A stretch of 64,000 nt of DNA from Peptococcaceae bacterium UBA5755 (GTDB lineage Bacteria; Bacillota; Dehalobacteriia; UBA4068; UBA5755), in contig DIFF01000012.1 of assembly GCA_002419005.1 (NCBI GenBank), forward strand, positions 17,436-81,435. The letters are read 5' to 3'. A program made the position numbers and the translations under genes. This document shows positions 310-35,625 of the stretch, piece by piece. Under the pieces are notes generated by a model, which was not told the origin of the DNA, made no database searches, and was given only the letters and a program-made list of their open reading frames with translations. Each line of letters opens with the position of its first letter. Within the stretch, counting starts at the first letter, position 1.

Positions 310-1806
310 TTAAAGAAATGCCTTTGTAGAAATACCTTCATAAACTTTTCTGAAATGGAACCCGTAAATTGTAAACCGCACTGCCGCCGGAAACAGCTTC
401 GGATGCCTGAACATCGACCAGAAAAAAAGCTTCCAGTAATACCAGCGCTCCTTCCCCAGAATGCCGAGCCGAAACATGGACCTTATAAACGCCAAAATAT
501 TGGTTACATTCATATTAATACTGATCGGTTTATCGGCATCAAATTCTTTCAAGAAATTACCGACGCGTTCATAATAAAATTTGGGGGAATAAATGGTGGA
601 AACAATGCTTTGATATCCCTCCACCAGCAAATTCTTATCCATTTTAGGGGTAAAATTCATAGTCAAATTTGTATTGTCGCCCGAAAACTCATCTGTCATT
701 CTGCCTTCTTTCAAGAGCCGCTGATACAGCTTTGTACCTTTGGGGGCATTCAGAAGACCAACCATCGCCGTAACAATCCCGCTGTCCTGAATAAATTTGA
801 CCATCCGGCTGAAAATAGTTTCATTGTCGTTATCAAACCCAACAATAAATCCGCCCTGAACCTCCAGCCCAAACCGCTGAATTTTTTTGATGCACGCAAT
901 CAGGTCGCGGCCTTTGTTTTGTATTTTTTTACACTCTAAAAGGCTGTCTTCATCGGGAGTCTCAATTCCGATAAAAACGGAATTAAACCCGGCTTTGACC
1001 ATCATTTTCATCAGATTTTCATCGTCCGAAAGGTTGATAGATGCTTCCGTAAGAAACTGAAAAGGATAATTATGTCGTTCCATCCAGCCTATAATGGCGG
1101 GCAGAACTGCTTCCGTCAACTTTTTTTTATTTCCAATAAAATTATCGTCAACAAAAAAGACGGTGCCTCTCCAGCCGGCTTCATAAATGGCGTCCATCTC
1201 GTTAAGCAGCTGAACGGCATCCTTTGTTCGCGGAATATTACCGTAAAGCGATGTAATGTTGCAGAATTCACAGTTGAAAGGGCAGCCGCGGGAATATTGG
1301 ATGTTCAATGACGCGTATTTTTTAACATTGATTAGATCCCATTGTGGGACAGGGACCGTATCAAGTGCCGGCCATTCCTCCGATGTATATAAATGTTTCG
1401 CATTATTATGCTCCAGATCTTCTATAAAAGGCGGAATCGTAAGTTCGCCCTCGTTTAAAACAAGGTGATCAATGTCGTCGTACAGTTCATATTCGGATGT
1501 AAATAAAGGTCCACCCGCAACCGTTTTGATGCCAAGTTTCCTGCAGCGATCAATCACTTCCCTGACGGAATCCTTCTGGACAACCATGGCGCTTAAAAAA
1601 ACATAATCGGCCCATAAAAGATCATGGTCCGTAAGCTTAGCCACATTCATATCGACAAGTTTTTTCTCATAATGCTTTGGGAGGATCGCCGCAACAGTTA
1701 GAAGCCCAAGGGGCGGAAACGCGGCCTTTTTGGAAATAAAATTCAGAGCATACTGGAATCCCCAGTAAGTAACAGGATTTTCGGGATAGACAAGCAAAAT
1801 TTTCAT
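310..1806 (-). CDS. B12-binding radical SAM protein with a DUF4070-like C-terminal domain
   Basis: N-terminal cobalamin-binding-like segment (MKILLVYPEN...GLL). CxxxCxxC radical SAM motif RGCPFNCEFC. Start placed at the internal ATG (MKIL), which follows a GGAGGA RBS, rather than at the upstream ORF-track start. Confidence 0.8.
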   Translation of the reverse strand: MKILLVYPENPVTYWGFQYALNFISKKAAFPPLGLLTVAAILPKHYEKKLVDMNVAKLTDHDLLWADYVFLSAMVVQKDSVREVIDRCRKLGIKTVAGGPLFTSEYELYDDIDHLVLNEGELTIPPFIEDLEHNNAKHLYTSEEWPALDTVPVPQWDLINVKKYASLNIQYSRGCPFNCEFCNITSLYGNIPRTKDAVQLLNEMDAIYEAGWRGTVFFVDDNFIGNKKKLTEAVLPAIIGWMERHNYPFQFLTEASINLSDDENLMKMMVKAGFNSVFIGIETPDEDSLLECKKIQNKGRDLIACIKKIQRFGLEVQGGFIVGFDNDNETIFSRMVKFIQDSGIVTAMVGLLNAPKGTKLYQRLLKEGRMTDEFSGDNTNLTMNFTPKMDKNLLVEGYQSIVSTIYSPKFYYERVGNFLKEFDADKPISINMNVTNILAFIRSMFRLGILGKERWYYWKLFFWSMFRHPKLFPAAVRFTIYGFHFRKVYEGISTKAFL

Positions 1807-2208
1807 AGTTTCCTCCATTAATTTTAATTTGGGAATATTTTTATAGTCTATCCCGGTTTTGGAGGATCTATCCTTAAACACAAACCCAAAAAACCGCAAT
1901 AAAATATTTACTTTTGTCTTCAGAGTATTTTCATTGTAACACGTATGCGGCCAAATTTATATGAAAATAAAATTTTATTTATGTAAACCAGGCAGGATCG
2001 TCATTATTATATTGAGAAATTTTTTTTCTTCCTTAAAGTACATTTAGCATTTATCCACATATTTATGTTGCATATGCAAATAAATTATGTTAAACTCTAT
2101 ATATTGACAAAAAACAAATAGAATTTTCTTAACTCAAATCTCTTTTTAATGATTTTGGGAAATTTGTTCGAAAATTTGTCCAAAATTTTAATAAGGAGGT
2201 TTTTTGTT

Positions 2209-3567: not shown

Positions 3568-3588
3568 TTAAATATTTTATGGCTTTAA

Positions 3589-3618
3589 GGCTCTGGTTTT
3601 ACAACCAGAGCCTTTTTT
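3589..3618 (+). terminator. rho-independent terminator
   Basis: ggctctggtt-ttac-aaccagagcc followed by TTTTTT. Confidence 0.7.
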
Positions 3619-3832: not shown

Positions 3833-6800
3833 ATGGGTCAAGGAAAAGCAAAAAGCAAATATGTTGTATCCATTATCATAGGTTTGTTAGTAGTTTTGGC
3901 CGTGGCCTTCGTAGCCTTCATACAAAACAAAAATGATGCAGAGTCAGCTCTTGCGGCTAATATTTCCATCACGGCAGCGGCAGAAAACGAAAACGGTATC
4001 GACCCATCCCAAGGTTTCATAATCACCAGCTCAGAAGAGCTAAGCCACAAGCTGATTAGCCAATACTTAAAAACCCAGCCGGCCTTCGAATACACAATAG
4101 AAGATATGCCGGAGGGCTATTCTTATTTAATTTTGCCTAATGCCCAATTAAAACCCAACAGTATCTATCAGCTAATTTTTGATCCTTCCGGAGGTGAAAG
4201 ATCGGAATATCAATGGGCTTTCCAAACCAACAAAACTTTTGGCGTCAAACAAACCCTGCCAAGCGACCAATCTTCTCAAGTACCCACCAACACCGGCATA
4301 GAAATTACCTTCAACCAATCCGGCTTTACCTTAGAAGATGCCGAAGCAGCTTTTTCAATTGAGCCGGCAGTCAATGGTACTTTTGAAAAGAATGATGCTA
4401 CTCTCATCTTCATTCCCAAAGAAGAACTGCAGGAAGATACCATATACACTGTAACAATCAGCAAATCTTTTGGCCTGGCTGATTCTAGCAGCACCTTGCC
4501 GAGCGATCTTACCTTTAAATTTGCTACTAATTCCACTAGTGCCTACACAGACTACGACTCTATATATATAGATCAGGCTAATCAAAACACCTCATTTTCT
4601 TTAACTCAAGCCCCCATATTTAATTTCTACATCTGGAGCAACATAAGCTTAACCAGCGATGTAACGATATATAAATATTCAGAAACCGAAAACTATGTAA
4701 CAGATTTGCAAAAATCAACAGAAAACTACTGGAGCAATGTTTATAACGAATTAGATAAAACAAATTTAAACAAAGCAGCAAATTTTTCAGCAGATTTAAT
4801 AAAAGTTGATTATAATGCCTACCTGCAATTTCCTGATACTTTGGAAAAAGGTTATTATGTGGCCGAAATAGTATTTAAAGATAAGTCAAACCCTGATTCC
4901 GGCTACACCAAAACCGCCTGCATTTGGTTCCAAGTCACAAATCTGTCAGCCTATTTTGCCTATCAGTATAACGAAGGTATAGTTTGGTTGCATAATATAG
5001 AAACAGGCCAAACCGCGAGCAATGCCAGCCTCACTTTAAGCTGGAAGGACGAAAAACTAGCAGCAGATGCCGACGGAGTAGCATATTTTGAAACAAATTT
5101 TGATTCAGACACTGTCTCTGCTTATGAATACAACTGGTATTACAATTATCCATCATACAACAGCTGGTGGGGGCAAGGTAAATATATTTTGGCTCAATCA
5201 GGTGATTATGAGCTTGTTCTCTGTCCTACCGATTACTACTATTCTCATTATTACACTGCCAGCCAAAACTACTGGAAATATTTTTACCTGGATAGAAACA
5301 TCTACCGGCCAGGTGACACTGTCAATTTCTGGGGTCTTGTGCAAGGTCGCACCCAAACAACAGAAAACCCAAGCAAAGTAACCATTAAGCTTTCTGGTGG
5401 CAACATCAGCTCCAACAGTAGTTTTGAAACCGAGGTAAATGTAACAAACGGCATGTTTGAGGGCAGCTACACCTTGCCGCAGTTGCAAAACGGCTACTAT
5501 TATTTAACCATTTTTGTAGATGACCAAGTAATAGACACCAACTACTTAACTGTAGAGCAATATGAAAAACCGGCCTACAGCATCAGCCTAGAGACCGACA
5601 AAAAAGCCGTCTTTGTGGGGGATACAATTAACTGGACGGCCACTGCAACTTATTTTGAAGGTACCCCGCTGGCAAATTTAGGCTTAACTTTTGGCTACTC
5701 CTGGGAAGAAAACAATCAAAAGAAAACCACCAATGCTCAGGGTCAAGCAACTTTCCAAACCACCGGAACAACCTATTCAGATAATTATATAAACACCAAC
5801 TACAACATGATTTATGCCACCCTGCCAGAAAGCGGGGAAATAACCGGGGAAACCAGCATAATGGTCTTTCCAAGTGCCATTGATGTAGAAAGTAAAACAG
5901 TAAAAGAGGAGGATAAACTGGATATCTCCCTCACAGCCTACAATATAGATCTTTCTATCATTAACAACAGCACAGACACCATAAACATTTATGATGAAGA
6001 CCACATTTACCGCAACGGCATAGCTAGTGGAACAAAACTAAATGTAGAACTCCTTAAAGATACCTGGAAAAAGGTAGAATCCGGTTCTTATTATGATTAT
6101 TACACCAAAACCATACAAAAATCATATTCCTACGAATACAAGCAAGTTAAAGAAAATACCTGGCAAATAACTACCGATGCCAATGGTAAAGCTAATATAT
6201 CTTACACCCTGTCTGACCCAAACACTTCATACAGCCTTAAGATCACCGGTCAAGATAAACAAGGACGTACCTTTACCTATTGGTGCTATGTGTCAAATCC
6301 TTACTCTAATTACAGAAGCTGGTCCGACTATATTTACATGACCTTGGGCGAAAAGGAATCCTTCAAAGTAGGGGAAACCGTATCAGCCACCCTTATTCAA
6401 AATGACGGCACCAGCCTAAAAGTGGCAGATAAAGGCAGCATATTATATACCCGCACCAGAGACCATCTGTTGGATTACACAGTTTCCGATTCGCCTAATT
6501 TTAGCTTTGAATTTAAAGAAGAAGAAATACCAAATGTCAACCTAAATGCCGTATACTTCGACGGCAGAAACTATAAAACCATATCTTCTCAAGTAATGGC
6601 GTATTTTAACCCGGAAGAAAAGGCCTTAACCACCGAAATAACAACAGATAAAACAGAATATAAACCTGGCGACACAGTGACACTGTCTGTAACTTTAAAA
6701 GATTATACCGGCAAACCAATTGCCGGTCGTATCAACCTAAACCTGGTAGACGAAGCAATCTATGCCATGATGGACCAAAATGTCGACTTCTTAAATCAGC

Positions 6801-8875
6801 TGTATAGTGACACTTTCCACAATTATTATACCGAAAGCATAACCCACAAGGCCGATGCCACCGCACAAGATGCTAGGGGCGGTGCGGAAGGCGGTGGGGA
6901 AGGAGAGTCCTCCATACGAACCGAATTTTTAGACACAGTGCTTTTTAAAACTATAGAAGTCGGTTCAAACGGCAAAGGGGAAGTTAGCTTTGAGCTGCCA
7001 GACAATCTAACCTCCTGGCGGGTAACCTGGCATGCTTTAGCCAACAACTTGCAGGTAGGGAGTGGTACCAGTGCTATCGTAGTGCGGCAAGATTTCTTCG
7101 CTGAAATTCGGGTAAATAGCACTTACCTTGCCGGTGACAAAGTAATAGTTGGGCTGCGTTCTGCCGGCCTCAACCTCTCCAGTGCCATGGTAGAATATAC
7201 CCTTAGTCTGCAACAAACCGATGCCGCAGGCAATACCCAACTGTTGTGGCAAAACACCTCCACTGGTACTCCCAACACTTGGGTGGACAATCAGCTGCCG
7301 GAGATTGAAGCCGGTACTTACACCATAGAAGTGGCCGCAAAACAAGGCACATATTCCGATGCTCTGCGTAAAACCTTTACGGTAATAGAATCCTACCATA
7401 TGCAGAATATAGCCCAAAAGGTCACTCTGACAGATAGCCTAAGGCCTGTTGGCAGCACTACCGGCCTTACCAACCTGGTTTTTGCCAACTATAATCAATG
7501 CACAACCTTACAAGGTCTTTACCAATTGTGGTGTGCCGGCAAAACTAGAGTAGAGCAGCAAATAGCATCTAACCAAGCCGCCTTGCTTCTTGCCGAATAT
7601 TTCGAAATGGATACTAATGCAGAAAAACTTAATCTTTCCGATTATCAAAAATCTGATGGCGGCATTGCATATCTCTCATACAGCGATTCAAGTATTAGCA
7701 CCAGTGCTTTGGTAGCAGCCATTGCTCCAGAATATTTTGATACAAACGCCCTAGCAAATTATTTTAACAACTTGCTGGAGAGCGAGGATATTTGTGATCA
7801 AATAAATACTAAAACAACTAGTGAAACAGCTGAAAGAGCAAATACAACCCTCTTGGATGCCTCAAATTCCGTAGAAATATCCGAAGCATTGCTTGGTCTT
7901 GCTGCTTTAAATGAACCCATTTTATATCAAGTCCGCAATTTAGCTGCTGAAAAAGAGCTTCCGGTCTTAACCAAAATCAACCTGGCTTTGGCTCTGTATT
8001 ATCTGGGCGACCATGCCAATGCTAAAGCCATGTATGATACACTGATAGCAAGCTACGGAGAAGACTTAGGCGATACAATGCGGATGCGCGTTTCTTCAGA
8101 TGAAATGGATGATATTTACATTGCAACAGCCAGAATGAGTCTTTTAGCCAGCCTTTTTAACACTGAAGAAGCCGACAAGCTTTATCAGTACATCCTTCAG
8201 AATACCGGTGAAAAAGACCGTTGCATCTTAGAACAGCTTGGCATTTTGCAAGCTCGCCTGACTAACGATAAAAACTACACAGACGTCTCTTTCACATATA
8301 CAGTAAACGATAAAACAGAAACCGTAAAATTAGAAAAAGGTCAGCAATATGCTTTAACGCTAACCGCTGAAGAACTCACCGAAATCAAGTTTAAAAACAT
8401 CGAAGGCAATGTGGGAATTGTATCATATTATCAAAAACCTGGCCTGCCAACGGCAAGCCAAGGTAGCGGCACCGATGGCATAAAAATCAGTCGCACTTAC
8501 AGTGCGGGTGGTAAAACCGGCACCGAGTTTAGCCAAAACAGCCTAATCAAAATAGAAATAAATTATACCAGAGCTAAACCGGCCTCCAATGGGCTTTATA
8601 AGGTAGTAGATATTCTACCGGCCGGGCTCAAGCTGGTATCAACAGGAGAAAGCACTTATCTATCACACGAGGAAGGCCAACGCCTCACATTCTCTGTTTA
8701 TGTAAATGACGACGCCATTAAGTACGGCGGCAAAGATAATCGGCAAGGCACCCTAACATATTATGCCAGGGTATCTTCACCAGGCACTTTTACGGCAGAG
8801 GCTCCATATATTTCCCTGGATTCTTTAGATGCTCTCTATACTCTGGGTGAACCCGCCACAATCAGCATAAAATAA
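3833..8875 (+). CDS. membrane-anchored alpha-2-macroglobulin (A2M)/MG-domain family protein, about 1680 aa, apparently lacking a canonical CxEQ thioester
   Basis: N-terminal TM helix (IIGLLVVLAVAFVAFI). Repeated Ig/MG-like beta domains. A2M-type motifs LNLVDEAIYAM and PDNLTSWRVTWHALA. TED-like YQKSDGGIAYLSY. No CGEQ/CLEQ spacing found (only C-I-L-E-Q). AGGTGG RBS lies 9 nt before ATG 3833. Confidence 0.6.
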   Translation: MGQGKAKSKYVVSIIIGLLVVLAVAFVAFIQNKNDAESALAANISITAAAENENGIDPSQGFIITSSEELSHKLISQYLKTQPAFEYTIEDMPEGYSYLILPNAQLKPNSIYQLIFDPSGGERSEYQWAFQTNKTFGVKQTLPSDQSSQVPTNTGIEITFNQSGFTLEDAEAAFSIEPAVNGTFEKNDATLIFIPKEELQEDTIYTVTISKSFGLADSSSTLPSDLTFKFATNSTSAYTDYDSIYIDQANQNTSFSLTQAPIFNFYIWSNISLTSDVTIYKYSETENYVTDLQKSTENYWSNVYNELDKTNLNKAANFSADLIKVDYNAYLQFPDTLEKGYYVAEIVFKDKSNPDSGYTKTACIWFQVTNLSAYFAYQYNEGIVWLHNIETGQTASNASLTLSWKDEKLAADADGVAYFETNFDSDTVSAYEYNWYYNYPSYNSWWGQGKYILAQSGDYELVLCPTDYYYSHYYTASQNYWKYFYLDRNIYRPGDTVNFWGLVQGRTQTTENPSKVTIKLSGGNISSNSSFETEVNVTNGMFEGSYTLPQLQNGYYYLTIFVDDQVIDTNYLTVEQYEKPAYSISLETDKKAVFVGDTINWTATATYFEGTPLANLGLTFGYSWEENNQKKTTNAQGQATFQTTGTTYSDNYINTNYNMIYATLPESGEITGETSIMVFPSAIDVESKTVKEEDKLDISLTAYNIDLSIINNSTDTINIYDEDHIYRNGIASGTKLNVELLKDTWKKVESGSYYDYYTKTIQKSYSYEYKQVKENTWQITTDANGKANISYTLSDPNTSYSLKITGQDKQGRTFTYWCYVSNPYSNYRSWSDYIYMTLGEKESFKVGETVSATLIQNDGTSLKVADKGSILYTRTRDHLLDYTVSDSPNFSFEFKEEEIPNVNLNAVYFDGRNYKTISSQVMAYFNPEEKALTTEITTDKTEYKPGDTVTLSVTLKDYTGKPIAGRINLNLVDEAIYAMMDQNVDFLNQLYSDTFHNYYTESITHKADATAQDARGGAEGGGEGESSIRTEFLDTVLFKTIEVGSNGKGEVSFELPDNLTSWRVTWHALANNLQVGSGTSAIVVRQDFFAEIRVNSTYLAGDKVIVGLRSAGLNLSSAMVEYTLSLQQTDAAGNTQLLWQNTSTGTPNTWVDNQLPEIEAGTYTIEVAAKQGTYSDALRKTFTVIESYHMQNIAQKVTLTDSLRPVGSTTGLTNLVFANYNQCTTLQGLYQLWCAGKTRVEQQIASNQAALLLAEYFEMDTNAEKLNLSDYQKSDGGIAYLSYSDSSISTSALVAAIAPEYFDTNALANYFNNLLESEDICDQINTKTTSETAERANTTLLDASNSVEISEALLGLAALNEPILYQVRNLAAEKELPVLTKINLALALYYLGDHANAKAMYDTLIASYGEDLGDTMRMRVSSDEMDDIYIATARMSLLASLFNTEEADKLYQYILQNTGEKDRCILEQLGILQARLTNDKNYTDVSFTYTVNDKTETVKLEKGQQYALTLTAEELTEIKFKNIEGNVGIVSYYQKPGLPTASQGSGTDGIKISRTYSAGGKTGTEFSQNSLIKIEINYTRAKPASNGLYKVVDILPAGLKLVSTGESTYLSHEEGQRLTFSVYVNDDAIKYGGKDNRQGTLTYYARVSSPGTFTAEAPYISLDSLDALYTLGEPATISIK

Positions 8876-8886
8876 AATACAATACA

Positions 8887-9837
8887 ATGATCAACCTATC
8901 CGCAAACAAATTACAAACAAAGGCCAAGGGTAGCTTTAAGCTACCCTTGGCTCTATTTATTTTGCTTTTAACTGCAACCCTGCTTTTTTTGTCTGCCTGC
9001 AACCACACAAAAGAAATAACCCAGCAAAATGCAGGTAAAAGTAACCAAATAGCAAATAATATAATAGTGAATACCGACTCTTTTTTAAGTCAAGATCAAT
9101 TCACCAAAAGCATCTATAATGTAAAAATTAACGACCAAACAACCAATTATTTGGGCATTGTGGTGCCGCATCACAATGTGGCAAGCAACCTAATTGCTGA
9201 AGCCGTAGAAATATTGAGCAGGCAACAGCCAAAAATCGTGTTCATAGTGGGCCCCAACCACAAAAATGTCGGTTCCCCCATAACAACAGATTTCATTCAA
9301 TGGCAGACCACAAGCGGCACCAGTTATCCGGCCACACAAACAATAACAGAGCTGATAAACAGCAAAATAGCAGTAAAAGATGAAAACAACATTTTTGCCA
9401 CCGAGCATTCCATCGGCACAATAATGCCTTTTGTAAACTATTACATACCAAAAGCCGAGATAATACCTATCGTTTTGCACTACCAAATATCTTTAGAACA
9501 AATAAAAGAGTTGGCAGAATTTTTGAAACCCCATCTAGAGGAGGGGGCAGTTCTAATTGCCTCCATAGATTTTTCCCACGGTCTGGATATGGCAAAAGCA
9601 GTCGAAAGAGATGCAATAACACAAAAACTAATGGAAAAATACGCCATTAAGGAACTAATGCAGCTTGATAACACCTATTTGGATGCCCCGGGGGTGCTGG
9701 CCCTCATCCTTACCCTTTCTCAAGGGGTGGGAGATGCAAACTTTACAATCCTTGCCAACACTAATGCCGGCAAAATTTTAAACATCACAAACCAAGAGGT
9801 CACAAGCTATTTTACCTTGCTTTTTACCAACAAATAG
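8887..9837 (+). CDS. Memo-like (AmmeMemoRadiSam system protein B family) lipoprotein
   Basis: Lipobox LFLSAC. Memo-like motifs GIVVPHHNVAS, IVGPNH, EHSIGTIMPF, SIDFSHG, ANTNAG. Confidence 0.5.
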   Translation: MINLSANKLQTKAKGSFKLPLALFILLLTATLLFLSACNHTKEITQQNAGKSNQIANNIIVNTDSFLSQDQFTKSIYNVKINDQTTNYLGIVVPHHNVASNLIAEAVEILSRQQPKIVFIVGPNHKNVGSPITTDFIQWQTTSGTSYPATQTITELINSKIAVKDENNIFATEHSIGTIMPFVNYYIPKAEIIPIVLHYQISLEQIKELAEFLKPHLEEGAVLIASIDFSHGLDMAKAVERDAITQKLMEKYAIKELMQLDNTYLDAPGVLALILTLSQGVGDANFTILANTNAGKILNITNQEVTSYFTLLFTNK

Positions 9838-9877
9838 TTTTTATATAATTACACATAATATCAAATGAGGTGCACAA

Positions 9878-11086
9878 ATGAACTTACAAAAAGCCATAGA
9901 AAAAGCAACCGAGGCCATGGCTCTCTACGGCAAACAAAGAGAAGAATTAGACGAAGCCAATTTTAACAAAGTATTGGCCGCCATGCGAAAAAGCAAAATA
10001 ACCGACGCCCACTTAAAAAGCAGCTCCGGCTACGGTTACAACGACCGGGGCCGCGATGCTCTAGAAGAGGTGTGGGCAGAAGTGTTTAAAGCAGAAGCTG
10101 TCCTGGTACGCCAGCAAATAGTCTCCGGTACCCATGCCATATACTTGGCCCTTGCTGGCAATCTTTTACCGGGAGATGAGCTTTTAGCCCTTGGTACACC
10201 ATATGATACTCTACAAACCATTATCGGTCACAAAAAACATGTACCAGGTTCTTTAAGCGAACTCGGTATAAAATACCGGGAAATCCCTTTCAACTCATCC
10301 CCAGATGACATAGTAGCCAGCATCAAGCCACAAACCAAAATTTTTTCTATCCAACGCTCCAAAGGTTATACCTGGCGAGAATCTTTAAGCATTGCAAAAA
10401 TCGGCGAAATTACTAAGGCCATAAAAAAACACCACCCAGAGGTGATAGTTTTTGTGGATAATTGCTATGGTGAATTTGTGGAAAAAGAAGAACCAATCGA
10501 AGCTGGAGCTGATTTGTGTGCCGGTTCTCTCATCAAAAATGCCGGTGGGGGTTTAACCCCTTGTGGAGGCTATATTGCGGGCAAAAAAACTTTAATTGAA
10601 CGCTCTGCCGCCAAACTCACCACCCCTGGAGCCGGGCAAGAGGTTGGCCCCAGCCTAATGGATCAACGCATCTATTATCAGGGCCTTTTTATGGCCCCGC
10701 AGGTAGTGGGGGAGGCAATCCGGGGTAGTGTTTATGCCGCAACTTTAATGCAAGAGCTGGGCTTCAAGGTTCTCCCAACACCCCAAGCTCACCGCACCGA
10801 TATCGTCCAAGCTATTTGCCTGGAAACCAAAGAGCGTCTTTTAGCTTTTTGCCAAGGCATTCAAAAATATGGTCCGGTCGATTCCTTTGTTCTGCCAGTA
10901 CCAAACCTAATGCCGGGCTATAACCACCCTATAGTCATGGCGGCAGGTACCTTCATCCAGGGATCTTCCATAGAACTTTCTGCCGACGGGCCAATCACCC
11001 CACCATATAACGTGTTTTTGCAGGGCGGCCTAAACCGCTATCACACAAAAACCGCCTTAAACAACACCCTGCGGGAAATAATGTAA
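9878..11086 (+). CDS. ynbB: PLP-dependent Cys/Met-metabolism family protein (YnbB / aluminium-resistance-protein type)
   Basis: N-terminal region LYGKQREELDEANFNKVLAAMRKSKITDAHL...GYGYNDRGRDALEEVWAEVF and overall length are typical of the YnbB family. Confidence 0.65.
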   Translation: MNLQKAIEKATEAMALYGKQREELDEANFNKVLAAMRKSKITDAHLKSSSGYGYNDRGRDALEEVWAEVFKAEAVLVRQQIVSGTHAIYLALAGNLLPGDELLALGTPYDTLQTIIGHKKHVPGSLSELGIKYREIPFNSSPDDIVASIKPQTKIFSIQRSKGYTWRESLSIAKIGEITKAIKKHHPEVIVFVDNCYGEFVEKEEPIEAGADLCAGSLIKNAGGGLTPCGGYIAGKKTLIERSAAKLTTPGAGQEVGPSLMDQRIYYQGLFMAPQVVGEAIRGSVYAATLMQELGFKVLPTPQAHRTDIVQAICLETKERLLAFCQGIQKYGPVDSFVLPVPNLMPGYNHPIVMAAGTFIQGSSIELSADGPITPPYNVFLQGGLNRYHTKTALNNTLREIM

Positions 11087-11105
11087 ATTCAACATCTAAA
11101 ATAAA

Positions 11106-11145
11106 GTTAAGGCTCTGGACGAAAAATCCAGGGCCTTAACTTTAA
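11106..11145. terminator. bidirectional rho-independent terminator between ynbB (+) and the GGDEF sensor (-)
   Basis: gttaaggctctgga-cgaaaaa-tccagggccttaac, flanked by T-runs on both strands. Confidence 0.6.
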
Positions 11146-11164: not shown

Positions 11165-13486
11165 TTATAATAGGACATGTCCGAGATTATCCTCATTTTT
11201 ATCTTCGTTATTTGATATCACTGGAGCAATGACAACCCTGTTTTTGCCCTTGTTTTTTGCCTGGTATAAAGCTTTATCGGCAGCTCTCAAGAGCTCTTTC
11301 CCGGTAAGTCCGTGCTGTGGATAAGCAGCAACGCCGAGGGAAATCGTACATTCCCTCAAGGGCTGCCCCATGTGGTAAACCAAAAGCTTTCTTATGCCAA
11401 GCCGTAGTTTTTCAGCAAAACGTCCTGTATCTTCTAGTGTTGAGTTTGGAAATACTGCCACAAATTCCTCACCGCCGTAACGGGTTACAATATCTTCGAC
11501 ACGGGTCCCCTTTAATAAAAATTCCCCCAGTTCGTGAAGCAAGGCATCGCCGCCGTCATGTCCAAAAGTATCATTAAACTCCTTAAAGTGGTCGATATCA
11601 AACATAATAATTCCTACCGATTTTTTTTCCCGTTCCGCACGATGGAGTTCTCTTGTCAAAGATTCCTCCATATATCTTCGGTTAAAAAGCCCGGTAAGTG
11701 GGTCACGGATGGACTGCTGTCGTATTGTCTCCCACATTTTTAAGTTAGACAGAGCAAGGGCAACATGATTAGCAATGGTCATGATCAACTGAATTGTACA
11801 CTCCTTGTTTTGTATTGTCTGTTGATCCTGGGAAATCAAAGCCTGATCTACCTGATTTAAATGAAGTACCCCTATGGTCTCCCCATGCGCGATCATAGGT
11901 ACACAAAGATATCGTCTGTCTTGTGGGCCATTAATATGTCCACAGCGTAGTTCTGGATGAGAGTGGTCAATTATATGCGGCTGGCCTCGCCTTATCGCCC
12001 AGCAATCAAGCGGCGCAAATATTTTTTCTGAAAAGGTATAATTGCCCCACATTCCGCCCTCTTCAGCCAAATCCTTATTGGGATTAATCATATATAGGTT
12101 GCCACAGCTGTTCGGACAGATCATTTTAATATACTGAGCACTGATGGAACAAGCCTCCTCAACTGTCTGACAATTTTGAAGCTGTTCGCTCATTTCCCTC
12201 ATTTGGTTCAATTCCTCTGTTCTTGTCTCAAGTTCCTTAATCCAGACAGTAAGCTGTTGGTTTACTTCCTCAACTTCTTTTTCTGCCTGTCTCTGTTCCG
12301 TAATATCAATGCCAGTAGCAACAACATATTCTACTTTATCTTTTTTGTCATTAAGAAGTACGGTATTAATCCAGCTTATTAGCCGCTTTTCCCCGCTCCG
12401 GGTAACCCATAGACTTTCAAAACAGGTGGGATATTGTCCGCTGAACAGCTTCCGAAGCTCCTGCTCAACAAACACAGGATTGGCAGAGATAATATCTTCA
12501 AGTTTCCTGCCTATAGCCTCCTGCGAAGAATAACCTGATAATTTCTCGCAACTCCGGTTAAATACGCTAACTACACCTTCCCGATTAAGAACCAATACCA
12601 GCGATGCAGTCGTATCAAGTATGGCATTTGTAAAGTCGCGTTCTTTTTTAACTTTTTCTTCCACCTGTTTTTGACTAGTAATATCACGTATCGAGGTTAG
12701 TAGTAGGCCATCCTGACCTTTGTAACTTATAATGTCAGTGTTAATAAGAACAGTTCTGATCCTGCCGTCTTTTCTTTTATATTTCGCTTCAAAATCACGC
12801 ACTACGCCGGTTTCCTTCGTTAAATCCAAGAGTCGTTTTCTATCAAAGGAATTATAGTAAAAGTCAAAAGTCTTTATAATTTTTAGCTCATCTTCTGTAT
12901 ACTCCAGAAGTTCCTGCATTGCCTGGTTGCTGGCAAATATTTTTCCTTGAAAATCCGTTACGGTTATGCCAACCGGAGCACTATTAAACAAAAAATAATA
13001 TCGTTCTTCCGAATCCTGAAGCTCCTCCTGCATTTTTTTTAACGAAGTAATATCCTGTATTGAAGTTAAGGTTATTTTTTCATCATCAAAAATTATTTCG
13101 TCAGAATTTATAAGTACCGTTATTAAAGTCCCATTTTTATTTTTTAATTTTGCCTCAATATTACGCAAATGGCTATTATTGCTCATAGCTTGCCTGATCT
13201 TTTCGTCCGCATCAGGATCGACAAATACGTCAGATACACTCATGGATGCCAATTCTTCTTGGGTATATCCCAGTAAATCCTGCAACATTTTATTTGTATT
13301 TAAGATATTTCCCTGAATGCTAGTTATGCCAAGACCTATAGGCACAGCGTTAAAAAAACGCTGATAATCACTGCCAGGTTTTTCTAAAGCTACAGCCAAA
13401 TCTCTATGTTTGTATTCAGTTTCATCCAATTCCTTTTTTTGATTACTCAATATGTTGGATTGGCCACTCATATTGTCCTTTTTCAT
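11165..13486 (-). CDS. multi-PAS/GAF sensor diguanylate cyclase (GGDEF)
   Basis: Several PAS-like repeats (coiled-coil linkers, ...ITERK/ITSQK...). A GAF-like segment. C-terminal GGDEF domain with RYGGEEF and the upstream DxLT. Confidence 0.8.
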   Translation of the reverse strand: MKKDNMSGQSNILSNQKKELDETEYKHRDLAVALEKPGSDYQRFFNAVPIGLGITSIQGNILNTNKMLQDLLGYTQEELASMSVSDVFVDPDADEKIRQAMSNNSHLRNIEAKLKNKNGTLITVLINSDEIIFDDEKITLTSIQDITSLKKMQEELQDSEERYYFLFNSAPVGITVTDFQGKIFASNQAMQELLEYTEDELKIIKTFDFYYNSFDRKRLLDLTKETGVVRDFEAKYKRKDGRIRTVLINTDIISYKGQDGLLLTSIRDITSQKQVEEKVKKERDFTNAILDTTASLVLVLNREGVVSVFNRSCEKLSGYSSQEAIGRKLEDIISANPVFVEQELRKLFSGQYPTCFESLWVTRSGEKRLISWINTVLLNDKKDKVEYVVATGIDITEQRQAEKEVEEVNQQLTVWIKELETRTEELNQMREMSEQLQNCQTVEEACSISAQYIKMICPNSCGNLYMINPNKDLAEEGGMWGNYTFSEKIFAPLDCWAIRRGQPHIIDHSHPELRCGHINGPQDRRYLCVPMIAHGETIGVLHLNQVDQALISQDQQTIQNKECTIQLIMTIANHVALALSNLKMWETIRQQSIRDPLTGLFNRRYMEESLTRELHRAEREKKSVGIIMFDIDHFKEFNDTFGHDGGDALLHELGEFLLKGTRVEDIVTRYGGEEFVAVFPNSTLEDTGRFAEKLRLGIRKLLVYHMGQPLRECTISLGVAAYPQHGLTGKELLRAADKALYQAKNKGKNRVVIAPVISNNEDKNEDNLGHVLL

Positions 13487-13709: not shown

Positions 13710-14180
13710 TTATATTTCTCCTGATAAGATGGCTCTGACCGCATTGCCAATTTCCTCATAGCTTGTGCACCGGCAAATATTGCTTTGCAGCCACTCGTCA
13801 ATCACGATATCGGGCGGATAAGGGTGAATAGTAGCAAGAGCGTGGCAGACCAGTAAAAAACCGGAGGTGCAGTAGCCGCATTGAAAAGCAAATTTTTCAA
13901 TAAACGCTTTCTGGATCGGCACATTTTTAAGCCCCTCAACCGTAGTAATTTTTTTACCTAATGCTTCCACCGTTAGCATAAGACAGGATTTTACCGGCCA
14001 GCCGTCAATAAGCACAGTGCAGGCCCCACAGTCCCCGTTTTCACATCCCGGTTTCGCACCCGTTAAGCCTAGCTGATCCCGAAGCGTGTTTAAAAGAACA
14101 TCCGACGGACGGATAACGACGTCGTGGATTTCCTTGTTGACATTAAGTTGAACAATATTTTTCCCCTTTAAACTATACAT
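13710..14180 (-). CDS. (2Fe-2S)-binding small subunit of a xanthine-dehydrogenase/CO-dehydrogenase-family molybdoenzyme (CoxS-like)
   Basis: CENGDCGACTV and CGYCTSG cysteine clusters. Confidence 0.85.
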   Translation of the reverse strand: MYSLKGKNIVQLNVNKEIHDVVIRPSDVLLNTLRDQLGLTGAKPGCENGDCGACTVLIDGWPVKSCLMLTVEALGKKITTVEGLKNVPIQKAFIEKFAFQCGYCTSGFLLVCHALATIHPYPPDIVIDEWLQSNICRCTSYEEIGNAVRAILSGEI

Positions 14181-14182
14181 AA

Positions 14183-15016
14183 TTACTGATCCTTTAATGT
14201 TTCTAAAATATTTACTATGGTGTTTTTCAGAACGTATTTCCGGTATTCCGCTGAGCCGTATAAGTCGCTTGTTATTACACCTGATAATGCCTGAACAATT
14301 TTATCCGCTCTTTGTGAAAATTCGAGACTGGAATCGTTTAACATGTTTTCAATATTTGCCTCTCTGAAGGGGTATGAGGCAAGCCCGCTGAAGGCAATCC
14401 GGACATAACCGTCCAATTTTAATCCTTCTGCTGTAATCAAAGGATAGTCAATTTTTTCGTTTTTTGTTTTTTTCACATGAAAGTAGGGGGCTATTAAAAA
14501 TTTTTTGTCTATGGTTGCTTTTACAAGAAATTCTCCTTTTTGAAGCCTAAGCCGTTCCTTAAATACTTGGCCGATTTCCACTTCAGCAAGACCGTTTTTG
14601 CCGGCAACCGTCAGCCTGGCATTTGTTAGTAAAAGCGGCAAAACGGTTTCCCGATAAATAATCGTCGATGCAAGGTTCCCTCCAAATGTAATTTTACCCT
14701 GCATCGTATGGTCTGCAATACGGCCGGCAGTTTTGCTGAGTAGGGGAAAATAATTTGCTTCAGTTATATCAGATAAAGTAATTGCGCTTCCCAAACAAAG
14801 GGTATCCGCATTAAACCCTAAAACTTTACATTCGGGAATATTTTTAATATCCACGACCGCACCAAAGGATTGGCTTCCGACTCGAGCCATACTAATAAGT
14901 TCGGTGCCACCGCCATAATATACCGGAGACTTGCCTTCCTTATCAAGTTTTAAAAAAATATCAACTGCTTCTTTGAGTGTGTCCGGTCTATAATATTCAA
15001 AATCAAATGAAATCAT
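14183..15016 (-). CDS. FAD-binding medium subunit (CoxM-like)
   Basis: FAD-binding PCMH-type fold motifs (YYGGGTEL). Start ATG overlaps the large-subunit stop (ATGA), indicating translational coupling. Confidence 0.75.
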   Translation of the reverse strand: MISFDFEYYRPDTLKEAVDIFLKLDKEGKSPVYYGGGTELISMARVGSQSFGAVVDIKNIPECKVLGFNADTLCLGSAITLSDITEANYFPLLSKTAGRIADHTMQGKITFGGNLASTIIYRETVLPLLLTNARLTVAGKNGLAEVEIGQVFKERLRLQKGEFLVKATIDKKFLIAPYFHVKKTKNEKIDYPLITAEGLKLDGYVRIAFSGLASYPFREANIENMLNDSSLEFSQRADKIVQALSGVITSDLYGSAEYRKYVLKNTIVNILETLKDQ

Positions 15017-17355
15017 AAAACTCCTCCGGTTTTTATTCTCCATATGGTTTCCGGAACAAGCGGAAGTTCATCCAATTCGGCCTGCACAGCAACAGAAAGC
15101 GCATTTCCAAGGGCTGCCGGTATCCCGATGATCCCATGCTCTGCAATTCCCCTTGCCTCATACGGGGAATCCAGCTGAGGAGTTTCAACAAATTCAACCA
15201 AATACTGCGGCGTTTCCCCAAAATGCATAACCTTATAACTTCGGAGACTCGTATCCAAAACCTCCCCCTCTGGCCCGTAATTAAAACATTCCCGGCTGCC
15301 AAGCCCAAGACCCATACACATACCACCCTTCACCAGGGATTCCGCCATGGACGGATTCAATAAATTCCCCGCGTCCATTACAGTCGCCGCTTTGATAAAC
15401 CTGTAGGTATACTCTTTTTTATCAAATTCAATCTCCACCGCTTGAGCTCCAACCGTCCAGTAGGGGCCTGCCTTACCTTTGCCGGTTTCTTTGTCCAAAA
15501 CGTTAATATCGCTCATAATAAAGCTGCCGCGTCCCAGAATTTGCCCTTCAACCGAATTACCGTTATTATACTTATAACCGTGCACAAGGTCTTTAAAATT
15601 AAGAAAAATGGCAGGATCGCTTTTCACATATATCTTTTCGTCCTCCACCTCAAGATTTTCCGGCGGGCATCTCAAAACAACCGCAGCAAGGCTTTTTAAT
15701 TGTCTTATTACATCTTCAGCTGCCCGTAAAACGGCACGCCCCAGCATAAAAGTAGTCATGCTGGCTACTGTTTTCCAATGTTTCGGACTGTATTTTGTAT
15801 TAACATCCATATTAACGTAAATTCGGTTGATATCCATCTTCAGTTTTTCCGATAAAATTTGCGCAGCAGTCGTTTTCATGGCCGGACCATATTCAACACA
15901 GCCACAATTTAAGTTGATGCTGCCATCTTCATTAAAAGTCAAAAAAACACCAGAAACCTCATCCGGTGGCGAATTGGAGGTCTTCCATAAGCATGCCATT
16001 CCTTTGGCTTTGATTTTATCGTTGCCGATTTCCAATCGATCGCCTTCCTCCCAGTTAATCAGGGTTTTCAGCTTATCAATGCAAGCCACAAGATTACCAA
16101 AATTACTTTCGGTTACCTTAACCTGTGTCGGTGTCGTATGATTCGGCAGCAACGAATTTATTTTCCGGAACTCGGCGGGATCCATTTGAAGCCTACGGGC
16201 GAGTTTATCTATCATCCGTTCGATACAGAACGTATAAGAAGCATGACCAAATCCACGGAAGGCGGTGACATAAGGATGGTTTGTATAAACACACAAAACA
16301 TCGCACCAAACGTTATCAATGTTGTATGGGCCTGTACAGTCCACTGCTATTGCTCTAGCAAGACGCGGACCGGTATCAGAATATGCCCCTGTGTCAACAA
16401 GATAGGTCATTTGTATAGCTTTAAGCTTCCCATCTTTGGAAGCACCAAGCTTAATTATTGCCTCCAGCCCCATTCGGCAGGGAGAGGTGACAATATCGTT
16501 TTCGCGGGAATTTATAATCTTTATTTCTCTTCCTCCAACCGCTTTTGAGGCCATATAGGCCAAAAGTTCAAGCTGAATTGAGGCTTTACCGCCAAATCCG
16601 CCGCCAACAAATGGAACTTCGACGATCACCTTGCCCTCTTCCAAGCCAAAAACCTTACTAATTTCTTTTTTGATACCATGCGGAGCCTGGGAGGCCGAGC
16701 GAATGAAAACAGTGCCATCCGCATTGATCTTTGCCTGCGCCGTTCTGGTTTCCATGGCAATATGATCCGATTGAGGAAGAATAAAACGGGCTTCCTCAAT
16801 AATATCGCTTTCAAAAAATCCCTTTTGAATGTCGCCTTTCCGTATCTGTTTTTGGTCACAAATATTTGTTCCCGGTTTAGGATAGACATCTTCCACAACT
16901 GTTTTGTAACTGCCCAGGTTTTCATGCAAAATTACGGCTCCTTGCCGAATTGCTTCTGAAGGGGAATTAACAACGGGCAGTGGTTCATATTCAACTTTAA
17001 TCAAAAAAACTGCCTGTGACGCAATAAATTCGTTATCAGCGACAACAAGCGCAATCGGTTCCCCGTAATACCGCACTTTTTTATGAGCCAACGGAGGCCT
17101 GTCCTCAAGTAACGGGCCGTATATAACGGAACAATTGTCTCCGGTTATGATTGCTCTAACCCCCGGCAGAGAAGAGGCCTGGGCTATATCAATTTTCTTG
17201 ATTGCTGCATGCGCGCATGTACTCGTTACCATTTTTGCCGTTAAAATACCAACGGAAATAAAATCATTGGTATATTTTGCATCCCCGGTTACCTTATTGC
17301 ATGCTTCCTTACGGATGACCGTTACGCCAATCCCTGTTTTGGGCATAGATATCAC
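15013..17355 (-). CDS. molybdopterin-binding large subunit of an XDH/CODH-family enzyme (CoxL-like), substrate unassigned
   Basis: About 780 aa. Typical aldehyde oxidase/xanthine dehydrogenase a/b hammerhead and MoCo-binding segments (GGGFGGK, etc.). Confidence 0.8.
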   Translation of the reverse strand: MISMPKTGIGVTVIRKEACNKVTGDAKYTNDFISVGILTAKMVTSTCAHAAIKKIDIAQASSLPGVRAIITGDNCSVIYGPLLEDRPPLAHKKVRYYGEPIALVVADNEFIASQAVFLIKVEYEPLPVVNSPSEAIRQGAVILHENLGSYKTVVEDVYPKPGTNICDQKQIRKGDIQKGFFESDIIEEARFILPQSDHIAMETRTAQAKINADGTVFIRSASQAPHGIKKEISKVFGLEEGKVIVEVPFVGGGFGGKASIQLELLAYMASKAVGGREIKIINSRENDIVTSPCRMGLEAIIKLGASKDGKLKAIQMTYLVDTGAYSDTGPRLARAIAVDCTGPYNIDNVWCDVLCVYTNHPYVTAFRGFGHASYTFCIERMIDKLARRLQMDPAEFRKINSLLPNHTTPTQVKVTESNFGNLVACIDKLKTLINWEEGDRLEIGNDKIKAKGMACLWKTSNSPPDEVSGVFLTFNEDGSINLNCGCVEYGPAMKTTAAQILSEKLKMDINRIYVNMDVNTKYSPKHWKTVASMTTFMLGRAVLRAAEDVIRQLKSLAAVVLRCPPENLEVEDEKIYVKSDPAIFLNFKDLVHGYKYNNGNSVEGQILGRGSFIMSDINVLDKETGKGKAGPYWTVGAQAVEIEFDKKEYTYRFIKAATVMDAGNLLNPSMAESLVKGGMCMGLGLGSRECFNYGPEGEVLDTSLRSYKVMHFGETPQYLVEFVETPQLDSPYEARGIAEHGIIGIPAALGNALSVAVQAELDELPLVPETIWRIKTGGVL

Positions 17356-20589: not shown

Positions 20590-20666
20590 GGAGGCATAGC
20601 TCAGTTGGTTAGAGTGCCTGCTTCACATGCAGGAGGTCGCTGGTTCGAGCCCAGCTGTCTCCACCA
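20590..20666 (+). tRNA. tRNA-Val (anticodon CAC)
   Basis: Hand-folded cloverleaf: acceptor GGAGGCA/TGTCTCC, D-arm, anticodon loop tTCACAt, T-loop TTCGAGC, encoded CCA. Confidence 0.85.
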
Positions 20667-35482: not shown

Positions 35483-35625
35483 AAAAAAGGAAGCACCGTA
35501 AGGCACTTCCTGTAAATTATTTTTTCAGTGACTCCCTACGTTGGCATTACCCAAATCAGGTAAAAGGGTCAAAGTTGATTACTTCCTCTCAGCCTGCACA
35601 CAAGCTCCCCTGTTTATTTAATTAT
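35483..35625 (-). ncRNA. TPP riboswitch (THI element) with terminator expression platform, leader of thiD-C-M-E
   Basis: Minus strand reads ...ggggagc...gcaggCTGAGAggaag...ACCC...ACCTGATttGGgTAATGCCAaCGtAGGGA..., then ggaagtgcc-ttac-ggtgcttcc plus TTTTTT (35483-35510). Confidence 0.8.

Follow-up and report, generated by a model that had tools for sequence, protein, structure and literature searches.

The question raised by positions 3833-11086 of the window, which is the whole 64,000-nucleotide (nt) stretch of Peptococcaceae bacterium UBA5755 contig DIFF01000012.1 that was analysed, is what kind of protein is encoded by a gene of 1680 codons and which of the genes that follow it belong with it. 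Three open reading frames (ORFs) on the (+) strand span this region (all coordinates are window positions), and the initial annotation had taken them for a three-gene envelope module of a thioester-less alpha-2-macroglobulin (A2M)-like protein, a Memo-family lipoprotein and a YnbB-type pyridoxal phosphate (PLP) enzyme. Results from domain, structure and locus comparisons showed that the large protein is, by sequence and predicted fold, a member of the A2M/C3 superfamily, and that the Memo-family protein is its conserved partner, while YnbB is a cytoplasmic housekeeping-type enzyme and a bystander outside the conserved unit. The three genes are as follows.

3833-8875, (+) strand: gene for the 1680-aa (amino acid) thioester-less A2M-family protein (Pfam, homologues, AlphaFold, Foldseek).
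8887-9837, (+) strand: gene for an exported Memo-family lipoprotein, the conserved partner of the A2M-like protein (lipobox LSAC, Cys38; Pfam, NCBIfam, locus comparison, model).
9878-11086, (+) strand: gene for a YnbB-type PLP enzyme, a neighbour outside the conserved module, possibly co-transcribed here (Pfam, PDB matches, beside the pair in 0/80 related loci).

Family assignments from Pfam and NCBIfam were judged against the curated bit-score cut-offs. The A2M-like protein matched the macroglobulin (MG) domain MG2 (52.6 bits, cut-off 32.8), the A2M domain, which is MG7 (48.3 bits, cut-off 21), the bait-region domain A2M_BRD (48.1 bits, cut-off 22.7) and the Ig-like domain Big_5 (36.0 bits, cut-off 23.6). 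Weaker matches to bMG3, MG3, MG4 and bMG10 were obtained in the expected order, bMG10 (23.7 bits) falling under its cut-off of 26.2. NCBIfam had no model for the 1680-aa protein. The domains and predicted segments were distributed along the gene as listed below.

4241-4528, (+) strand: bacterial Ig-like domain Big_5, aa 137-232 (Pfam).
5279-5512, (+) strand: macroglobulin domain MG2, aa 483-560, with the flanking weaker bMG3/MG3/MG4 matches at aa 368-644 (Pfam).
6350-6769, (+) strand: A2M bait-region domain of MG6 type, aa 840-979, ending in LNLVDEAIYAM (Pfam, motif).
6770-6934, (+) strand: bait-position loop, aa 980-1034 (disorder in the model, conserved motif).
6935-7150, (+) strand: A2M domain MG7, aa 1035-1106, containing PDNLTSWRVT (Pfam, PDB alignment, motif).
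7151-7489, (+) strand: predicted beta-sandwich at the CUB-like position, aa ~1107-1219 (modelled strands, which align with ECAM between MG7 and the C-terminus).
7490-8263, (+) strand: predicted twelve-helix thioester-domain homologue without a thioester, aa 1220-1477 (helices in the model, hhalign).
8285-8872, (+) strand: predicted C-terminal beta domains, CUB return and MG8/bMG10-like, aa 1485-1680 (sub-cut-off bMG10, model).

For aa 1000-1680, the AlphaFold model (55 sequences) had a mean predicted local distance difference test score (pLDDT) of 84.7 and consisted of a disordered stretch (aa 1000-1026), beta domains, 12 helices (aa 1220-1477) and further beta domains. The best Foldseek match of this model was ECAM of E. 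coli (5a42, E=8e-26), and the MG7-to-C-terminus part of ECAM (4ziu) gave E=2.8e-25, with further matches to Salmonella A2M, C3b, C5, CD109 and TEP1. A direct PDB sequence search with the large protein gave marginal matches to human A2M only (E ~3e-3, aligned aa 1027-1119). Domain annotation and structure prediction, which agree on an A2M-like domain string, thus both bear out the family claimed by the initial annotation, and its three motifs were all located (LNLVDEAIYAM at aa 969-979, PDNLTSWRVT at aa 1056-1065 and YQKSDGGIAY at aa 1271-1280). LNLVDEAIYAM had been called bait-region-like; it does lie within the bait-region domain MG6, in the region of its last strand, but the bait itself is the loop at aa 980-1034. 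PADLOC returned no match for the A2M-like, Memo-like or YnbB-like protein, and hence no link to known defence systems.

The thioester motif CxEQ was found neither in the 1680-aa protein nor in the 22 aligned clade members, 3 of which contain no cysteine at all. At the thioester position it was present in 0/80 of the closest full-length homologues, 2 of which have a stray CxEQ elsewhere, and in most relatives of the next tier, in which the Pfam thioester-domain model matches as well. Searched as a profile against Pfam and PDB, the helical domain of the clade gave no thioester-domain match, only spurious TPR-like ones. Alignment by hhalign with the thioester domains of the CxEQ-bearing relatives gave a probability of 97.1% (E=5.3e-11) and placed R1239 on the thioester Cys, E-Q on E-Q, and YQKSDGG on the Q-x-x-D-G-G-W motif. 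The C-x-E-Q position is therefore occupied by R1239-V-E-Q (nt 7547-7558), and R1239 is invariant across the clade alignments. The profile comparison identifies the predicted helical domain as a true thioester-domain homologue in which the thioester Cys has been swapped for an invariant Arg and the rest of the site has been kept, so that both the reported loss of CxEQ and the reading of YQKSDGGIAY as thioester-domain-like hold. Since Arg stands in place of the Cys, the protein could trap or switch conformation only in a non-covalent way. CILEQ at aa 1464, the only look-alike, was dismissed as a cryptic thioester on account of its wrong spacing, its unconserved Cys and its place at the far end of the domain.

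The large gene runs from ATG 3833, which a GGTGG ribosome-binding site precedes, to its stop at 8875; the ATG of the Memo-like ORF (316 aa), which has no obvious Shine-Dalgarno sequence, follows 11 nt past that stop. A survey with one genome per species returned 80 related loci, from Peptococcaceae, Dehalobacter, Desulfitobacterium, Gracilibacter, Syntrophomonadales, Tepidanaerobacter, Brassicibacter, Oscillospiraceae, Chloroflexota and Patescibacteria. A Memo homologue was present downstream on the same strand in 61/80 loci (tblastn), and the commonest spacing of the two genes was a 4-nt overlap (ORF clustering). Six of the Memo-less loci are contigs that end at or just past the A2M gene. Clustering of ORFs from 79 loci gave only Memo and an extracytoplasmic function (ECF) sigma gene as recurrent neighbours, and no transglycosylase cluster recurred among them. 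Approached from the Memo side, an A2M-like gene lay directly upstream in 3/3 long-contig loci, one of them in a Patescibacteria genome, and the pairing was also found in 3/3 loci of a variant that bears a Hint domain. Adjacency of the two genes in relatives had been set beforehand as the refutation test of the pairing, and these counts uphold it.

The Memo-like protein scored 83.2 bits with Memo (PF01875; cut-off 27) in Pfam and 94.7 bits with TIGR04336 (cut-off 26) in NCBIfam, and has the lipobox L35-S36-A37-C38, in line with its annotation as a Memo-family lipoprotein. An N-terminal hydrophobic export signal was present in 60/60 Memo partners examined, about half of which have a lipobox. Searches of PDB sequences with the protein, alone and as a 20-sequence profile, gave no match. 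Its model (pLDDT 90.3) was matched best in Foldseek by MEMO1 (7l5c and 3bcz, TM score 0.68-0.73) and then by LigB-type dioxygenases. Residues H95, N124, H125, D228, S230, H231, D242 and D266 are invariant in the Memo partners (54 sequences for H95, H125, D228, H231 and D266), and on these alignments a His/His/Asp/His metal-site signature is kept in the Memo partner. H95, H125, D228, H231 and D266 presumably correspond to H49, H81, D189, H192 and C244 of MEMO1.

The two proteins are further connected by the bait-position loop, which carries the conserved motif GGAEGGGEGESS (aa 1016-1027, nt 6878-6913) and is predicted to be disordered at aa 1000-1026 (pLDDT below 50). Most relatives have GGAE-x-GGEG(G/S)-x-ER at this place. 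The loop is not hypervariable, unlike the baits of broad-spectrum A2Ms, which points to a specific interaction. Motif and Memo gene were compared at 70 evaluable loci, with a pattern that was refined after looking at the data and with shared ancestry uncorrected: both were present in 56, both were absent in 12, the motif alone was present in 1 and Memo alone in 1 (Fisher p=1.6e-11). The tight translational coupling and this co-variation of motif and partner argue for a functional partnership of the A2M-like and Memo proteins.

The N-terminus of the large protein consists of a Lys-rich 10-aa tail followed by a hydrophobic stretch of ~21 aa (Kyte-Doolittle 3.17), and the protein has no lipobox.

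3860-3955, (+) strand: hydrophobic segment, aa 10-30, then A-L-A|A at aa 39-41 (Kyte-Doolittle; A-x-A conserved in relatives).

An A-x-A | [A/G/S]-E-[I/V] motif, 5-14 residues past the hydrophobic segment, occurs in most close relatives, including the sigma-coupled ones (most of L002-L079); in the window protein its A-L-A lies at nt 3947-3955. If signal peptidase I cuts at A-L-A|A, the N-terminus would be a long Sec signal peptide and not a signal anchor, and in sigma-coupled relatives the cut could play the part of an RsiV-like site-1. The protein may accordingly be either anchored or released and held by its lipoprotein partner. Of the earlier statement that the protein is anchored by a transmembrane helix and not by a lipobox, the absence of a lipobox and the presence of an N-terminal hydrophobic helix stand, while the anchoring is qualified by the conserved A-x-A, which may mark a cleavable signal peptide.

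Family membership, loss of the thioester, export signals, adjacency of the two genes and co-variation of motif and partner are established by the sequence analysis. The reading favoured on this basis, with moderate confidence, is that the two genes form an envelope module that represents a third, undescribed type of bacterial A2M, in which Memo would act on the bait loop and the change in the loop would switch the scaffold. The large protein would be exported by its signal anchor or signal peptide and would display a full A2M/C3 architecture on the outer face of the membrane, in the order Ig/MG array, bait-region domain, exposed disordered loop, MG7, CUB, thioester-domain homologue and C-terminal MG. 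The Memo partner would be translated from the same mRNA, usually by way of overlapping stop and start codons, and exported, here as a lipoprotein. The two proteins may then form a stoichiometric complex at the membrane surface, where Memo would bind or process the acidic, Gly-rich GGAE-x-GGEG of the bait-position loop. Cleavage or remodelling of the loop would switch the A2M scaffold, with protease trapping or protease sensing as the possible output. In relatives the same switch could be wired to transcription by an ECF sigma factor and an anti-sigma-like N-terminus, or be made autonomous by a Hint domain; the window copy would be the plain, stand-alone version.

Two types of bacterial A2M have been distinguished, both described in Gram-negative bacteria (PMC5764988). 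Type II is represented by MagD of Pseudomonas aeruginosa, which has no thioester, traps a protease non-covalently and needs its operon partners; its gene belongs to magABCDEF, an operon of six genes in Gram-negative bacteria, and MagB holds it at the membrane (PMC5764988). The window protein resembles Type II (MagD, E. coli YfaS) in being a large A2M with a bait region, without CxEQ, predicted to lie on the outer face of the cytoplasmic membrane and encoded together with a partner. It differs in that Memo is the sole conserved partner and no neighbours of magABCDEF/yfaSTAPQ type recur, in its hosts (Bacillota, Chloroflexota, Patescibacteria), in the conserved motif of its bait loop and in its anchor. 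Proteins named YfaS cover only 20-52% of the window query (E ~1e-21 to 1e-26). Type I proteins (ECAM/YfhM, Sa-A2M) are its best structural matches (5a42, 4ziu, 4u48, 4ziq), and it shares with them the order from the bait domain to the C-terminus and a homologous thioester domain. The features of Type I, namely a functional CxEQ, a lipoprotein anchor and a pbpC (PBP1c) neighbour, are all missing from the window protein, which has Arg for Cys, no lipobox in its signal anchor or signal peptide, and Memo and a helicase gene as neighbours. The Memo partner is like MEMO1 and the LigB-type (class III extradiol) dioxygenases in its family scores, its fold (TM ~0.7) and its conserved His and Asp at metal-site positions; unlike MEMO1 and the AmmeMemoRadiSam proteins, it is exported and paired with an A2M-like protein instead of AMMECR1 and a radical-SAM enzyme. 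A literature search on pairs of A2M and Memo, on anti-sigma factors of A2M type, on comparable Gram-positive A2Ms and on AmmeMemoRadiSam found nothing relevant, with incomplete coverage that makes this no proof of novelty; within the available literature, the A2M-Memo pairing has not been described before.

Several observations weigh against the favoured reading. The pattern behind the motif-Memo association was defined post hoc and without correction for shared ancestry, and the 12 loci lacking both motif and Memo may amount to one or two subclades. Locus L032 has the bait motif and no Memo gene, with a strong terminator hairpin directly 3' of its A2M-like gene (L032 positions 12845-12950); its Memo may be encoded elsewhere in the genome or have been lost. 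A conserved loop is atypical of a broad-spectrum protease trap and argues against generic protease inhibition. The helical domain has no direct sequence match in Pfam or PDB, its homology being drawn from profile-profile alignment and the model. Strict anaerobes make up many of the host lineages, so that the Memo partner is unlikely to act as an oxygenase.

The clade extends the A2M family to Gram-positive Bacillota, Chloroflexota and Patescibacteria, with another anchor, a Cys-to-Arg change and another partner. Memo proteins are widespread, and a co-encoded, exported Memo that tracks a short motif in its neighbour offers a testable substrate lead for those of bacteria. The sigma-coupled and Hint-bearing relatives serve as natural experiments that single out the bait loop as the working part of the scaffold.

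A more ambitious version takes the A2M scaffold for a cleavage-operated switch instead of a broad protease trap, with AE-x-GGEG as its trigger and Memo as the dedicated reader or processor, wired in three ways; it is put forward tentatively and is considered rather doubtful. The three wirings would be the stand-alone form of the window, an ECF sigma factor with an anti-sigma N-terminus, and a self-triggering Hint domain. In the sigma wiring the anti-sigma N-terminus would perhaps be released by signal peptidase at the conserved A-x-A, as in RsiV, and in the Hint wiring a transient thioester at the bait would replace the one that the thioester domain has lost. Were this so, a bacterial Memo would have its first defined substrate, and monoderm and Candidate Phyla Radiation (CPR) bacteria would have a new class of envelope sensor.

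The Hint-type domain (~130-150 aa) is inserted immediately after AE-x-GG in the bait loop of ~25 homologues (P0012, P0015, P0017, P0018, P0022, P0027, P0029, P0031-P0033, P0036, P0037, P0039, P0041, P0042, P0044, P0046, P0047, P0050, P0051, P0053, P0055 and P0108; loci L086-L088), and the window protein has no such insertion. Models matched by the insert are PT-HINT, Hint_2, Vint and Intein_splicing; its first residue is Cys, it contains a T-x-x-H block (TPEH) and its last residues are VHN. It resembles BIL and pretoxin-HINT domains in its Cys start, T-x-x-H and His-Asn end, and differs by its location in an A2M bait loop. His-Asn is followed by M, E, D or Q instead of Cys, Ser or Thr, a context in which canonical splicing would not be expected and which suggests self-cleavage of the bait; the insert should transiently form a thioester at the preceding Gly. 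A CVEQ thioester and a Hint domain occur together in one protein, P0105. In 2/3 Hint loci (positions 11361-13124 of L087 and 11335-13104 of L088) the Memo partner carries a fused PGA_cap domain (CapA-like, PF09587), as it does in P0196; these fusions occur in Patescibacteria-type loci.

The alternative that survives best is that the family is primarily a signal-sensing receptor and not a protease inhibitor; the ectodomain would detect extracellular cleavage of the loop or binding at it and report this by regulated proteolysis of an anti-sigma N-terminus, possibly by signal peptidase at the conserved A-x-A, the window copy having lost this coupling or signalling otherwise. It is an unlikely but possible account, drawn from relatives whose A2M-like gene overlaps at its start with an ECF sigma gene (15 of the 68 loci in which the upstream sequence was long enough). 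In every one of these the protein has a 60-130 aa cytoplasmic extension, its hydrophobic segment beginning at residue 59-128, against 4-30 elsewhere. Sigma70_r2 and Sigma70_r4_2 domains are present in the sigma genes, and the A2M-like proteins of L066 and L081 are fused to a zf-HC2 anti-sigma domain; that both zf-HC2 and non-zf-HC2 fusions occur suggests that they arose independently. A sigma gene is also present in 2/3 of the Memo-side loci, and the A-x-A lies just outside the membrane. An A2M-type ectodomain would thus be carried by a putative anti-sigma factor in the sigma-coupled relatives (L003, L007-L011, L015, L016, L019, L022, L025, L060, L066, L069, L081, L083 and L084). Signal peptidase acts in the regulated proteolysis of the anti-sigma factor RsiV, and these relatives are like RsiV-type and zf-HC2 anti-sigma factors in their ECF sigma gene, cytoplasmic extension and A-x-A outside the membrane. 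The window copy, on the other hand, has neither an anti-sigma domain nor a sigma gene: its cytoplasmic tail is only 10 aa long, and the 64-kb window as a whole yielded no ECF sigma gene. The sigma gene is likewise missing in 53/68 loci, and the non-zf-HC2 N-terminal extension, in the protein searched, has no recognisable anti-sigma domain.

Less probable still, and put at a low chance, is a structural surface protein, adhesin or S-layer-like scaffold with a dead thioester domain and no switching, in which case Memo would be an unrelated envelope enzyme sharing the operon. A Big_5 Ig-like domain of the surface-protein kind, the lost thioester, the conserved loop and the lack of an NCBIfam model are compatible with such a role. 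The complete A2M architecture, however, has been kept in order, which would be unnecessary for a simple stalk, and the invariant Arg at the former thioester position together with the conserved QxxDGG implies selection on the thioester-domain homologue. The translational coupling and the co-variation of motif and partner also speak for a functional partnership of the two proteins.

The three-gene A2M-Memo-YnbB envelope module of the initial annotation is very improbable. The genes do lie on the same strand with gaps of 11 and 40 nt here, and a strong terminator follows ynbB. A ynbB homologue was found beside the pair in 0/80 loci (tblastn) and in none of 7 further loci, and the gene is therefore not part of the module. 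The ynbB-like ORF (402 aa) is preceded by a 40-nt AT-rich gap and its own GAGGTG Shine-Dalgarno sequence, and its product has no export signal (maximum hydrophobicity 1.27). The identification of the enzyme itself was correct: Met_gamma_lyase (PF06838) scored 537 bits (cut-off 24.2), and the solved cytoplasmic YnbB-type structures 3ht4, 3jzl and 3hvy matched at E=1e-112 to 1e-121 (3ht4, E=7.5e-121). The gene may be co-transcribed with the pair in this genome. Hairpins in and around the three genes are as follows.

3587-3614, (+) strand: terminator-like hairpin closing the upstream DEAD-box helicase gene (12-bp stem, 6 GC pairs, TTTTAT tail); 5' boundary of the transcription unit.
8922-8952, (+) strand: hairpin inside the 5' end of the Memo ORF, with a U-rich tail (14-bp stem, not conserved in relatives).
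11102-11144, (+) strand: terminator-like hairpin between ynbB and the convergent PAS-GGDEF gene (18-bp stem); 3' boundary.

The statement that no terminator appears until after ynbB is only approximately right, since the strong, U-tailed hairpin at 8922-8952 sits inside the Memo ORF. Its perfect 14-bp stem falls within the first 22 Memo codons (minimum free energy -27.3 kcal/mol, z = -4.9). In form the hairpin is like an intrinsic terminator, and it may act as a local attenuator between the two genes. A family-wide attenuator at this place was ruled out, the equivalent regions of 60 related loci having a median z of -0.6.

That the Memo-like gene is a component of the AmmeMemoRadiSam system (TIGR04335-04337) standing beside the A2M-like gene by chance is scarcely credible. 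In its favour are the TIGR04336 score (94.7 bits against a cut-off of 26) and the name "AmmeMemoRadiSam system protein B", which NCBI or JGI give to several Memo homologues. Against it, 60/60 partners have an export signal while the AMMECR1 and radical-SAM partners are cytoplasmic, the 79 loci have no recurrent neighbour except the A2M-like and ECF sigma genes, and the one radical-SAM gene upstream in the window (310-1899, (-) strand) is of the B12-binding/DUF4070 type, lies on the opposite strand and is not conserved beside the pair in relatives. Export and the lack of AMMECR1 and radical-SAM neighbours argue against the assignment, and the name is probably a misnomer for the exported subfamily.

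Other features of the window were recorded in passing. Rfam gave no RNA element near the A2M-Memo locus. Downstream, a triple-PAS/GAF/GGDEF diguanylate cyclase gene (11165-13486, (-) strand) converges on ynbB and is followed by a three-subunit, xanthine-dehydrogenase-like molybdenum hydroxylase cluster (13710-17355, (-) strand), neither of which is conserved beside the pair in relatives. A tRNA gene (20590-20663, (+) strand) and a thiamine pyrophosphate (TPP) riboswitch (35516-35621, (-) strand, 68.7 bits), both unrelated to the A2M-Memo locus, lie further downstream.

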